A DNA stretch of 64,000 nt. It comes from Octopus vulgaris. Its lineage: Eukaryota. Position 1 is the first letter of the stretch, and the number at the start of each line of letters is the position of its first letter. The stretch spans positions 11,656,001 to 11,720,000 of the forward strand of contig OX597833.1 in NCBI GenBank assembly GCA_951406725.2, written 5' to 3'. The position numbers and the translations under genes were made by a program. Positions 14,917 through 21,200 of this stretch are shown piece after piece. The notes under the pieces were generated by a model that saw only the letters and a list, made by a program, of their open reading frames with translations, did not search any database and was not told where the DNA came from.

Positions 14917-17900
14917 TACAGGGTAAATGTTTTTCAATTTTCTCCTGGTTTACGGAATTGACGTTATTTTGCGGTTAAAGCTTTTGGCTGTTATTTCTAG
15001 TGGGTGAATGGCCTATTATGGCCGTTCCTTGATTGTTGATGTTGAACTTAAAAATGGTTTATGACTATTTAATTTTTTCCCACTAGGCCGCTGGTGGCAA
15101 AAGAATTCTACAAAATTTTTTTTGCCACCCTATATTGATTAATTATATATATATATATATATATATATAATTATAATAAGGATTTTTGGCAACAAGTTGC
15201 TTAAACCACATACAGAAAATATTAGAAATAGCAGTCAAAGGCCTACCATTTCTATTACAACAATGAAATTTCTATTACACACACTGACATACACACACAC
15301 ACACACACACACACACACACACACACTGACATACACACACACACACACTGACACACACATACACACACTGACATACACACACACACAAACACACACACAC
15401 ACACACACACACACACACACACACACACACACACACACACACACTGACACACACAGACACACATACAAACATACCAACACAAACACACAGACACTGACAC
15501 ACACACACATACACTGTCACACACACATACACTGACACACACACACACACTGACACATACACACACACAATGATACAAACACACACACACACACACACAT
15601 ACTGACACACACACACACACACACACAAATATGCCGGAAACTTCGGGAACGTACAAGCGACCGCAGTTCCTAACATCTTCATAATAAAATTTCATTCGAG
15701 ATAATAAATTTACTTACTGCTTATTAACAGTGTGTGTTTGTTCGTGTGTGTGTGCGTGCGTGTATGTATGTGTGTGTATGTGTGTATGCGTCTGTGTATG
15801 TGTGTCACACACACACATACACACATACACACACATACATGCACGCACATATACGTATTCCTATGTGTGCGTGTGTGTGTGTTTGCATGTGTCTGTTTCT
15901 GTGCGTGTGTGTAAGTGTACATCTAGATATAATACTTAACACTAATATTAATAGGGCTAAACGTTGCAGCGACAGGGCATGGCCATGCTGGAACCCCACC
16001 ATTAGATTTTTTTCATTACGCACTTATTTCCCTCTCCAGGATTATGTCTGGTGAAAGAGCGATCGGACAGGAGTACAATTCCACTCTTCTCTGTGTTTCC
16101 TTGGGATGTGTGTATATGTATATATACATATATATACCTATATATACATATGTATATATATATTCATATATATATATATATATATATATATATATATATA
16201 TATATATATATATATAATTATAATAAGGATTTTTGGCAACAAGTTGCTTAAACCACATGCCGAAAATATTAGAAATAGCAGTCAAATGCCTACCATTTCT
16301 ATTACAACAATGTAATTTCTATTACACACACTGACATACACACACACACACATTGACACACACATACACACACTGACATACACACACACAGACACTTACA
16401 CACACACTGACACACACACAGTGACAGTCACACTAACACACACACACACAAACACACACACACTGACACACACGCACACACTGACACACACACACACAAA
16501 CACGCACACACACACTGACACACACACAATATGACAAACGCACACTGACACATACACACACACACACACAAATATGCCGAAAAATGCGGGCACATACGAG
16601 CGACCGCAGTTCCTGTTGGGGCACAAGGTTGAAGTCAACTCCTCTAGCGAAGTATTTATCAAAGAGAAATACCGAAGGTAGGTAACTCACGACAGACTCC
16701 AGCCTGGCGCTCTAATGGCGTCACTTACTCGTTGTTGTTGACTATGTTTAAGTTAAAGCTATGGCTTTAAGTTTGTCCAGATATTCCCTTCTTCGGTATT
16801 TTCTTTTGATAACGGCTGAACTGGAACCCGATAGGGAGCAGCACTGGACTGATATGCTGTTTTTGCAGCTTTTTGCACTGAATTTGCCTTTAGAGTTTGA
16901 AATATGCCATTAGCACATTTTAACGAACCTAAACATTGCTTATGCCTAATACTGAGCGCTAATACTGTTCACTGGAAACGCCATGTTGAATGTTTCCATA
17001 TATTCATTTGTCAATTTGCATTTCGTGCTTTCATATTACTTAATTATTATTCTTTTTCTCTAGCTTTTTCACAATCGAGCATTCTTATGGCACGCAATTA
17101 ATCGGACAAAAAACGTGCTGCCACCCACAGATCCCTCTTTCCACGGATACCTTCGTTTATCTGGCAGCCATTCTACAAACTCCCACATACAAGGAGCAAT
17201 CATGCTGGGTAGAGTGTGAAAGACTCAACATGCTGCACTGATTCCACCTAATGTATATTTTATAAGTCGTCTTCCTTTCCTTACTAAGTCGTTTATGTGT
17301 GTTACAGTAATTGTATGCATGTATCTCGAAGCAAGTTCCCCTTCTGCTAGTTTGATAGTTTTATGTTACAGACGGAGATAATTTGTTGAACTTGATGTTT
17401 TGTGGTGTTGCTGTAGATTCGGTTGATGCTGTTCCTGAAGTGTACTCATATTTCTTGGTGGTTTCATATTTTATTTTGGCACATCAGTGTTCAGGGAACG
17501 ATGAGAGGCTGCGTGTGTAATGTGGCGCGAGGCAGTGTGTGTGTGATTTTTGTAGAAAGGAGAGAATATGTGAATGTAGGTTGGAAATAGTTAATCGTGG
17601 GGCGTGTACTTGTACCCTTGTCGAAAGTGTTTCGTGAAAACTTCAATGTGTTAGTAACTTGACAAGTAGTTAGGTAGTCAACATTTTGTGGTATTTCTTC
17701 AGTGGATATCAAATATCCTTTATTTGGTAATATCAGCAATTGGATTGCAGAGATTTCATCGCATCGATTGTAGTTACAATGATACGTATGGGAGTATTTT
17801 TTTATTAACCCATCATGATTTAGTGATGTTAGTTATAAGCTTTTATCGTGTTTTCTGAAGATTGATCATGAAAGGGGGATTTATTTGTACGGAGGTGTTT

Positions 17901-18250
17901 CATTTGGGGATTGTTTTCATTTTAAGACGGAATACAACACACATTTAAACGAATCATCATTTTATTTCAACTTTTAAATTTGATAAACTGAACCTCATAC
18001 AATGCATTCTAGAATCATTGCCTGAGGATTACATCCTTCTGTTAAGCTATTTGTCACATTCTATGATGTCTCTGTTGTTTGGTTTAGAATACTTTCTGAA
18101 AACTTGTAGCAGCAATTTATTTAACGACATATATTAGTTGGATAGAATATTGCAAAACACAATTAAAAGAAACGTATATGTTGCTTTATTATATTATCTT
18201 TTAGGATTCGCCGACATAAATTTTCATATGGAACTGAATTTAATTTCTAT

Positions 18251-21200
18251 TCAATATTTACTGCACACAACGCAGGTTAATTCTCGACCATTGACATACG
18301 GTGGACATGGCAATGAACCACAAGCAGCCTGAACGAAATACAGTAGAGCTCCTTCTTCATTTCTGTAACCTGCTGGATCAGCTTCTGGTGCATAGTCCAC
18401 ACACACATATTCAAGTCTCCCCTTTGCTATGTAACGACTAGCCATCACATATCCTGAATACTCAGCTGTCCAACCAGGGTAACACTTTGTCCTGGCTGGT
18501 AACATCATAACAACAGCAGGTTGTCGTGTCAAACAGACAGCGCACGGAACGTTGTGATCATGAATTGATTCAGCGTTAGCAAAAGAGAAGAGTTTATTTG
18601 TTGGGTAAAAATATAGATCATATTCACTGCCATAAATGTAACCACTGCTTTCATCTTCTGTCGTATAATTGGCCCAAATGGGGTCGTTGGGTAGACATAA
18701 GAGATTACTTCCGCCACCTGTATGGTTATACAATTGTCCACCAACAACACCTAGAATTGGTAAGAAGAAATCAAGTAAAAAGATATTAAGCAAAATTATA
18801 TATGAAATAACGGAAACATTCATTACAATTTGACCCTTAAAAGAAGTCATGTTTACTCGCGTGTGAACGAATTGTGGTGTATATATGTTAGTGTTTATGT
18901 AAGTGTAAGCTGTGTTTTGTATGCATGAGATCGTAGCTGTGCATTTGCCTTCGCATCATATATATATATATATATATATATATATATATATATATATATA
19001 TATATATATATATATATATATATATATATATTTATATATATATATACATATCGTAATAAGCAACTAGGATATCCAGATAATGCGGTACGATTGTTTCATA
19101 CAACTCCATATATATATATGTTTTGTGTATACGGGTAAGTAATTGTGGTTACGACGTGGATTATTATGTATGTTTGCATGGGGTGGATGTCAATAGATGG
19201 AGAAAAAGAAAGATATTTTATAACGCAGGCACTCGTGTTTATCCGAAATGAAAAAGATGTTTACGTGTGAACGGGGATATTTTGGATGGTGGAAATTGTT
19301 GGTGGTTTGATTAGGACAATACGGGAGATGACGAGATGCAGAGAAGTGGTGGGTAACCGTCGATGAAATGTTGTTTAGTCGATCATACGAGAGTCAGTGG
19401 CTAAACCTCTCGTTTAGACTCGGACGAATCAGGCTTACACAGACGTTATGATCACACAGACTTTTTTCATGCAATACACAGAAACGAGGTGGGAGGAAAA
19501 ATCGTGAGGTTCAGTGATGGCGTAGTGCTTAGGATGAATGTACGGCGGAGTGGGCGACCGATAAAGGATATGTGTAGGTTTTATAGAGAGCGAATTCGGA
19601 GCATTTTAAAGCATTTTAAAGGAATGGCGAAGCGGTTTGTGGCAGCAGTTTTGAATTGGAAGTTTCGGAATTACCTTACAAAGATATACTGGATAATTAA
19701 TGAGGTGATGTGGTGCATGAAAAGAGCAAGGTTTTAGCGATAGGACGATTTCGGTGAAGCGGAGAAGAATAGAAGTGCATTCTGTACTCTGTTGTGTTCT
19801 CTCACTAATATTTAGTCTCTCTCTATTTTACTTAATGAATACAGTCCTTAGCTTTTTCCATCAGTTACAGTGTGTGGCTTGTCCAGTCCTCATTGTACAT
19901 TGTACGTTCATTTCATTCATAATTTACAGTCACTGTCATCAATTCTAAAAGACTCTTTTCAATTTAGCCCACACCTACGATCACTGGGCACTCTAGTTAA
20001 TGATAGTCACGTGGCCACTTTTCAGCTCTGGTCACTCACGTACAATACCACAATCCGTAGCCTGTACAATTGATCACCAGTTAGCAGCCTCGGTATTTGA
20101 TATCTACAATCCAAAGCTGGTCAGCCTGAAATTCTTGATCGCCATGGTGGTTTTCAGTCCAGCCCCTGTCTGTAATTTAACGTAGAGATATCTATATTCT
20201 GTGGTTAGACAACATTCTTTTCATTTGGTCCGTAGTAGACAACATATAATATTCTGATTTGACCAAATACCTACAAAGGAGTAAGCAATCTTGTGTAGTG
20301 TCTGTATAGACTACAGGTATAGACGTTTGAAACGTGACATATCATAATAGGATTTGAGAATGTTTATGTCAGACAACCCGACAAATGTTGAGTGTGTGCA
20401 TGTGCGTGAGAGAGAGGGTGAGAGAGAAAGAAAGGCAATAAAAAGAGAGAATGAGAGTTATTAAAAGAGAACAAGAGAAAGACAAAAAGAGAATGAGAGG
20501 TAAGAAATATAAAGTATACTAACCGTCATATACAAGGTTTGAATAAGGAGGACAAGTTGTTCTGCCCCACCGGGTATACAATGATCCGAGACCGGGTTCT
20601 GCGAAATTAAAATGAAATAATGTAGTTTAAAAGAAAGAATTTGGGGATCATTTACAAAGTAGATTGTTCAATTGGAAGGAATTGATGGAGAAGAGAGAAA
20701 TATAGAATTTAAGAAAGAACGAGTGAATGAATGAAAGTCAGAACGAAAGATGTAAATAATAAGAATAAATTGTAAAGAAAGAAAAAAGACATTTGTCTGT
20801 TGAGCCTGTTGGTGACGTTGATGTCAAAGATTTGAGAGATTAATCTCAGAATATCAGAATGTGTATCGGTCTCCGCTATGAACGGATGTATGTATGATGC
20901 GTAAACTTGGGTATGAGTATATATTCTTCTCAATAGAATAATGATAAAACTCAATAGAATAATGATAAAATATTCGCCAGGTGCGAATATTCATCGGTCA
21001 ATTACAAATATCAGTTTGGAGCTCAGCGCAAACAAGTCCATCATAACTACAATATGAAAATAACAACCATACCCCATCATTTGTCGATTTATTTAAAAGA
21101 CCTCGCATCCGGATCTCGAGTAAAGGAGTCCGTTCGATAAATGTATAGCACAACACACCCAATACCGGTGCAACCAGCAAGAAGCCTGCAACTTAATCTG

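Follow-up and report, generated by a model that had tools for sequence, protein, structure and literature searches.

The window analysed here, 64,000 nucleotides of Octopus vulgaris contig OX597833.1 (C20:11656001-11720000 of a 2.8-Gb genome), lies in a tandem cluster of genes whose products are labelled 'short-chain collagen C4-like'. Within it, positions 61020-63085 are best explained as a single-copy inverted fragment of a C4-like paralog, a pseudogene relic of the tandem cluster that most likely lost exon 4 and the 3' untranslated region (UTR) by a ~1.2-kb deletion; we put the probability of this reading at about 0.92. A sequence-only reading of the window had proposed either that the exon block entered an old mobile element by insertion or capture, or that the region is an inverted paralog that lost exon 4. 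The tree position of the relic, the age of the intron position and the lineage of the 3' UTRs bear out the second proposal, while the first fails because both halves of the relic adjoin C4-like genes only, genome-wide. The relic has no coding exon and no predicted function.

Self-BLAST and local alignment match window 61033-61823 (plus strand) to intron 3 of paralog 2, running from 19938 to 19112, with 70% ungapped identity. In local alignments the same segment matches intron 3 of paralog 1 (3612 to ~2750, 68% ungapped) and of paralog 3 (42797 to ~41936, 70% ungapped). The following segment, 61824-63112, corresponds to the 3' flank of paralog 2 (17907 to 16541, 79% ungapped) up to a common (TG)n end, and BLAST aligns this half at 70.4% over 1380 columns (678 bits). 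Relic alignments score ~200-850, as compared with 24-44 for 40 shuffles under the same scoring. The succession of intron 3 and paralog 2 flank noticed in the sequence-only reading is thus observed directly. The same applies to the ~1.2-kb block missing at the join, which corresponds to ~17908-19111 of paralog 2 and comprises (TA)n, a polypyrimidine tract, the AG acceptor, exon 4 (18750-18251) and the 3' UTR. Some details of that reading needed correction. The homology does resume, but without the 20-30 bp suggested, the join at ~61823/61824 being flush and essentially without spacer. It also resumes in paralogs 1 and 3, though not briefly, since the diverged homology to the relic flank runs on for ~670 bp at 68-69%; the intron motif that had been quoted is the paralog 1/3 version. 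The left end of the missing block coincides with the start of an intronic (AT)n/(AC)n tract in six of the seven aligned paralogs, and the seventh carries a repeat insertion at this point.

At the 5' side the relic is truncated. No homology to exon 3 or to the proximal intron was found upstream of 60939-61012, where the best scores (44-50) reflect low complexity. Plus-strand exons 1-3 of a C4-like gene, which the sequence-only reading had suggested looking for upstream of 61 kb, were not found between 48.8 and 61 kb; the relic is therefore also without the 5' end of its parent gene. Of the features of a pseudogene fragment, the relic displays collinear intron and flank homology and nesting among exon-bearing paralogs, and shows no remaining parent exon or promoter upstream. 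All six frames of the relic and paralog 2 were also read for similarity to a long interspersed nuclear element (LINE), with only short frames found.

The region is full of repeats and microsatellites, which could favour an assembly error at the join. Nevertheless, a single contig bridges the join in all four runs (X1 61044-63072, X2 61027-63072, X6 61027-62499 and X7 61450-62477), and read depth over it is flat (59.9, 41.4, 52.5 and 5.2 in the four runs). Depth at the adjoining repeat 60461-60850 reaches 1e5-1e6. Since the contigs span the join in every run and depth stays flat, the join is real and the relic is single-copy at at least 90% identity. The join-spanning runs carry three organism labels and single-nucleotide polymorphisms of their own, and the relic sequence is 20-30% away from every paralog, so that an artefact of assembly can be dismissed. 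The X1 contig differs from the window by only two letters, and X1 may be the source sample.

To what extent the relic behaves as a mobile element was assessed by genome searches. The whole-length relic gave 52 matches (best 40 of 385 candidates scored), namely itself, 10 in the cluster, two in the intron of a C4-like paralog at C20:909 kb and 39 elsewhere. These 39 matches, on many contigs, cover only query 1681-1963 (window 62700-62982). With the left half alone, 13 non-self matches were obtained (12/12 candidates scored), none of them more than 4.4 kb from an exon 4 of a C4-like gene. Nine were obtained with the join and right half together (9/9 candidates scored), at distances of up to 1.6 kb from such an exon. 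No copies of the relic halves away from C4-like genes were found genome-wide, as 22/22 non-self matches adjoin C4-like exons. The sequence-only reading had itself named such confinement as the outcome that would speak against its element hypothesis. Being confined to C4-like loci and present in a single copy, the relic is not a dispersed element, and the 2-kb sequence as a whole is not a mobile element.

Other searches for traces of an element gave a similar picture. In intron 3 of paralog 2, dispersed matches occur only in the first ~115 bases (best 40 of 83 candidates scored). The six longest relic and flank frames had no Pfam match under E 0.01, a search that heavily decayed remnants could escape, and a 185-amino-acid flank frame of paralog 3 gave 22 matches in a genome protein search, all in C4-like flanks and mostly with stops. 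Rfam returned a single chance match on 60400-63700 (E 0.9). Neither Pfam nor genome searches supported a seemingly LINE-like motif of intron 3. Words common to both ends of the block were seen in four of eight paralogs (AAAACA in two, CAACA in one and ACAAA in one). A consistent target duplication was not found at the block ends, the longest shared word being 3-6 bp and inconsistent (8/9 paralogs), and 20-30% divergence would blur such a duplication.

The dispersed component of the relic is a unit of ~306 bp with an internal hairpin, which elsewhere often occurs as tandem or inverted partial copies. It is common to the relic and the paralog-2-type flanks and remains unaligned in paralog-1-type and old-clade flanks; in the latter, the alignment stops at ~62682 and no right-hand match past the unit was seen. 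We infer that the unit was gained in the relic/paralog-2 lineage. Some features of non-autonomous Helitron/Helentron elements, namely dispersal, an internal hairpin and partial copies in tandem or inverted arrangement, are displayed by this unit only, a candidate that resembles non-autonomous rolling-circle or satellite-like elements. Its copies were noted at window 62697-62985 and 16680-16967 and at loci L011 and L013-L030. A different dispersed repeat of ~275 bp (window 529-802) occupies the paralog-1-type flanks at the point where relic homology stops.

To place the relic among its relatives, we used 36 genes with exons 3 and 4, modelled from most of the cluster plus outliers. The intron tree comprises 24 rows and the flank tree 23; 13/36 and 14/36 paralogs, respectively, are absent because the segment is missing, interrupted or not alignable or, for a small number of old-clade copies, because they are redundant. 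Distances from multiple alignments are inflated by misaligned stretches, and pairwise and tree distances were preferred. In pairwise comparisons, the left half has 80% identity with the intron of the exon-bearing C20:909 kb paralog, located 10.8 Mb from the relic, versus 66-75% for other paralogs. For the right half, identity is 78-80% with the flanks of seven paralog-2-type genes versus 67-74% for the others (paralog-1-type 67-70%). In the intron tree, the left half is sister to the 909-kb paralog (support 100/99), with a patristic distance of 0.28 to this paralog, as compared with 0.50 for the main clade and 0.70 for the old one. In the flank tree, the right half is sister to the paralog-2-type flanks, which belong to seven exon-bearing genes (support 100/100), at a distance of 0.31 versus 0.83 and 1.02. 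The approximately unbiased (AU) test rejected the alternative for the intron tree (p-AU 0.0038) and, for the flank tree, the alternative 'all main-clade genes together without the relic' (p-AU 3.7e-5), both p values being somewhat optimistic because the groups were named after the first trees were seen. The relic thus does not take the outgroup position of an empty copy and is sister to exon-bearing paralogs in both halves (midpoint root only). Furthermore, both halves are detectable around exon 4 in 29/36 paralogs, old clade included; the order of intron, exon and flank is therefore older than the split of the relic.

The exon arrangement itself also appears to be ancient. All 6/6 distant paralogs examined (one on C2, four on C4 and one at C20:9.43 Mb) have a phase-1 intron at YxG|V(A/V)GG; they share 51-60% amino acid identity and show an exon-3 equivalent followed, some hundreds of bases on, by an AG acceptor of the same phase ahead of V(A/V)xG. 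This comparison rests on exon-3 matches and acceptor sequences. No DNA similarity to the relic was found in these six paralogs. The arrangement is thus not younger than the supposed element, the same phase-1 intron being present where element DNA was not found. Exon 4 had been described as the domain-coding exon. In fact it is not the whole domain, as the conserved start YxRWGRxxC is encoded in exon 3 and recurs in proteins of Capitella, Dendronephthya, Ruditapes, Branchiostoma and Owenia. With an old intron position and a domain that starts in exon 3, exon 4 is therefore not a free module placed by an element.

Comparison of paralog-2-type and paralog-1-type genes reveals abrupt changes of relatedness. 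Their identity is 0.95-0.98 where exon 4 ends but only 0.72-0.75 immediately beyond the stop, and the distance between their UTRs (0.255) equals that of the paralog-2-type UTR to the old clade; over the last 170 intron bases, the distance is only 0.08. It is likely, from these sequence comparisons, that gene conversion or crossover occurred within exon 4 and that paralogs changed lineage between intron, exon and UTR. The paralog-2-type genes would thereby have acquired their 3' end from the lineage of the relic via a crossover in exon 4. Since the 3' UTR, a part of the missing block, is of the divergent type in paralog-2-type genes, the flank lineage of the relic likely carried the block. In keeping with such exchange, four-fold sites of exon 4 differ by only 0.09-0.14 between clades whose UTRs differ by 0.25-0.27 (window 17908-18750 and paralogs). 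In paralogs 1 and 2, 8935-10236 versus 27176-28468 and 12699-13634 versus 29022-29993 (introns and exon 1 regions) are 91-92% identical, compared with only ~75-80% for intron 3, another sign of mosaicism.

The origin of the relic could be envisaged as follows. Tandem duplication and inversion would have produced a C4-like lineage represented today by its intron at C20:909 kb and by its 3' end in the seven paralog-2-type genes, the latter being putative mosaics that change lineage at the end of exon 4. The ~306-bp repeat would have entered the flank of this lineage before the relic split off. The relic copy would then have lost exons 1-3 at its 5' side, and exon 4 would have been deleted, the left end of the deletion falling where the (AT)n/(AC)n microsatellite begins; slippage or the repair of a break there is the probable cause. 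A calibration quoted in PMC13282606 equates a Jukes-Cantor distance of 0.09 with 25 million years. As a rough estimate, the relic may have split from its nearest relatives ~40 million years ago, with the deletion some time later.

Several points weigh against the relic being a deletion derivative. The trees are unrooted and the nesting leans on a rough clock; with the root set by midpoint, the nesting argument therefore assumes roughly even rates, the search for an outgroup intron that could be aligned having failed (x-clade scores 26-32). A relic-type intron, exon 4 and a relic-type flank do not occur together in any one intact gene, the 909-kb paralog ending within exon 4. In such a mosaic cluster, older sequence could in principle have been drawn toward its neighbours by gene conversion, which is evident in the cluster and weakens the tree arguments. 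Moreover, at ~20-30% divergence, microhomology at the breakpoint is unreadable. The genome DNA search passes over very common words and does not detect copies below ~65% identity, and ~80 kb of the cluster (C20:11116001-11130000 and 11170001-11236000) was covered by this search alone.

An opposite course of events could be imagined, in which the relic is the empty copy of an old low-copy mobile element and exon 4 with its acceptor and UTR became part of another copy by insertion or capture, the family growing from the hybrid. The flush join, the right end with its dispersed hairpin-bearing unit and (TG)n, and the 5-6-bp word near both block ends in four of eight paralogs are in line with such a scenario. 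We nonetheless regard it as highly improbable. No copy exists away from C4-like genes among the matches found, no Pfam match under E 0.01 was obtained in six frames, and the flank frame of paralog 3 matches C4-like flanks only. The shared end word differs or is shorter in other paralogs, with no consistent target duplication. In addition, the position of the intron is older than the cluster, and it is exon 3 that encodes the start of the domain. Finally, the relic is nested in both trees, and rooting them on it would need ~4-fold rate differences among non-coding neighbours. The same very low credence applies to an elaborated version, in which an extinct rolling-circle-like element of low copy number would have left the relic as its last empty copy, the exon having moved into the element in an ancestor of the octopus cluster, conversion having hidden its age and the element having driven the expansion of the family. 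A slightly better, still improbable, alternative is that the join arose by recombination of two broken paralogs, with a 909-kb-type intron and a paralog-2-type flank, or during an inversion. Indeed, the nearest relative of each half is a different one and lies at a different locus, and the cluster is mosaic with opposite-strand blocks. On the other hand, the halves are nearly equidistant from these relatives (0.28 and 0.31), as if from one parent gene, and their order and orientation match a gene exactly. Under recombination, too, exon 4 was lost, not gained. Collectively, deletion of the terminal exon block from a C4-like paralog accounts best for the relic.

Table 1. Parts of the relic and corresponding segments of the C4-like paralogs in the window
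Feature	Position	Strand	Basis
Left half of relic, corresponding to the distal ~800 bp of intron 3	61020..61823	+	alignments; genome matches
Relic right half, homologue of 3' flank after the UTR	61824..62690	+	alignments; genome matches
Partial copy of dispersed ~306-bp repeat unit, common to paralog-2-type flanks	62697..62985	+	
Short shared tail and (TG)n microsatellite	62986..63115	+	sequence; alignment to 16647-16541
(ATT)n and poly-T tract at relic 5' truncation point	60939..61012	+	
Paralog 2 coding exon 1	29259..29402	-	tblastn; splice motifs; family RNA-guess splice joints
Paralog 2 exon 2	23313..23361	-	tblastn; splice motifs; family RNA-guess splice joints
Paralog 2 exon 3, 75 nt, start of conserved domain	20524..20598	-	tblastn; splice motifs; splice joints
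Paralog 2 exon 4, phase-1 start, 165 codons and stop	18251..18750	-	
Paralog 2 intron 3 segment homologous to relic left half	19112..19945	-	local alignment
Paralog 2 block without counterpart in relic: (TA)n, acceptor, exon 4, 3' UTR	17908..19111	-	
Paralog 2 3' flank homologous to relic right half, dispersed unit, (TG)n	16570..17907	-	
Paralog 1: intron 3 segment, exon 4 (1908-2407), UTR, diverged flank	800..3612	-	
Paralog 3: intron 3 segment, exon 4 (41218-41717), UTR, diverged flank	40100..42797	-	

A protein search of the genome gave 55 C4-like matches, most of them at C20:10.99-11.78 Mb, a tandem cluster of 0.8 Mb in which 34 C4-like genes were modelled; further matches lie at C20:0.84, 0.91 and 9.43 Mb and on C2, C4 and C8. 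Paralog 2 exon 4 matches, at 100% identity, a part of the Octopus vulgaris protein P0001, labelled 'short-chain collagen C4-like', and the RNA-guess run X19 contains the joint 18748/20522 between its exons 3 and 4. Searching proteins with exon 4 returned 374 relatives at E<=0.001 among 382 candidates, the same label being carried by proteins of Octopus, Argonauta, bivalves, annelids, Branchiostoma and a soft coral. No Pfam family matched the octopus C4-like domain under E 0.1. Despite the collagen label, the octopus proteins show a hydrophobic N-terminal stretch (exon 1, 29259-29402) and no Gly-X-Y repeat. The microsatellite at the left end of the deletion (~19112 and equivalents) also carries, in several paralogs, insertions that are apparently independent, and intron 3 ranges from ~400 to 6500 bp.

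Decayed copies are frequent in this family. Ten of 36 exon-4 copies are not open over their full length, and other C4-like fragments, at C20:11097612, 11254128, 11453145, 11539232 and 11749745, have lost different pieces. In the right-hand neighbour of the relic, C20:11723760-11729031 on the same strand, exons 1-2 were not detected and the acceptor is damaged. Far from the cluster, the copy at C20:901495-914290 retains exons 1-3 but ends within exon 4. Its missing 3' end was sought in the fragment at C20:11254128, to which shared repeats are the sole link. A further copy, C8:118874021-118877950, may be recent or misplaced, since it lies 30 kb from a contig end and is 94% identical to the paralog 2 intron. 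Among 26 open exon-4 copies, 77/166 columns are invariant and 29 columns, in four or five patches, have at least five residues. For main-clade exon 4, overall nonsynonymous and synonymous differences (pN/pS) are 0.094/0.167; pN/pS is ~1 or above at the variable columns, which were chosen for their variability. Judging from its sequences, the C4-like cluster looks like a diversifying recognition-type family.

Two other groups of elements were noted in the window, both on the minus strand. A 775-amino-acid open frame at 35916-38243 has reverse transcriptase and GIY-YIG matches in a Penelope-like arrangement. Positions 50547-58475 hold a tandem pair of LINE copies, both frameshifted and with frames for reverse transcriptase; they share 64% identity over 639 bp and, judging from their motifs, are probably RTE-like.

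By itself, the relic is of little importance, as it merely adds to the decayed copies of a tandem cluster and is a case of ordinary gene-family decay. It does preserve a paralog lineage whose intron and 3' end now sit in separate genes, and this lineage shows the paralog-2-type genes to be mosaics that change lineage at the end of exon 4. It also illustrates that a flush 'empty site' within a tandem cluster is no proof of insertion. Had an element captured the exon, the founding of a cephalopod gene family by exon shuffling could have been traced here. The mosaic, patchily hypervariable C4-like cluster is a better target than the relic. In PMC10142993, 'short-chain collagen C4' is named once for octopus, in an ink-proteome table of predicted peptides. 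Titles and opening lines of abstracts retrieved for this name contained nothing on the octopus cluster and no functional study, and no report of exon capture in the C4-like family was found in literature listings. In contrast to the 'short-chain collagen C4-like' proteins, the relic encodes none of the protein.

Gene pieces can be moved by Helitron or Pack-MULE fragment capture and by LINE 3' transduction. The likeness of the relic to these systems is superficial, consisting of an exon flanked by sequence that is also found exon-less and of a dispersed hairpin repeat at one end. Unlike them, it has shown no dispersed empty copies, shared termini, consistent target duplication or transposon protein, and in its family exon 4 stays in the ancestral place behind exon 3. 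Unprocessed pseudogene fragments, on the other hand, occur in tandem gene clusters under birth-and-death evolution. Like these, the relic has kept intron and flank, has lost its coding exons, is nested in the paralog tree and lies among intact paralogs of both orientations; nothing essential differs, and it is the clean loss of the whole terminal exon block that makes it look like an empty site. The nearest described analogue of the C4-like cluster is the sea urchin Sp185/333 family, for which PMC5103432 describes clustered similar genes, short tandem repeats at inferred deletions, hybrid genes formed by recombination and a partial duplication without the gene-bearing part. Short tandem repeats are proposed there to drive the deletions and the hybrid genes. 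A relationship between the sea urchin and octopus proteins is not known. In Sp185/333, GA/GAT repeats surround whole genes, whereas the octopus relic has a microsatellite at its left breakpoint only, inside an intron; and while a section heading of the same paper states that there are no pseudogenes, broken copies are common in the octopus cluster.

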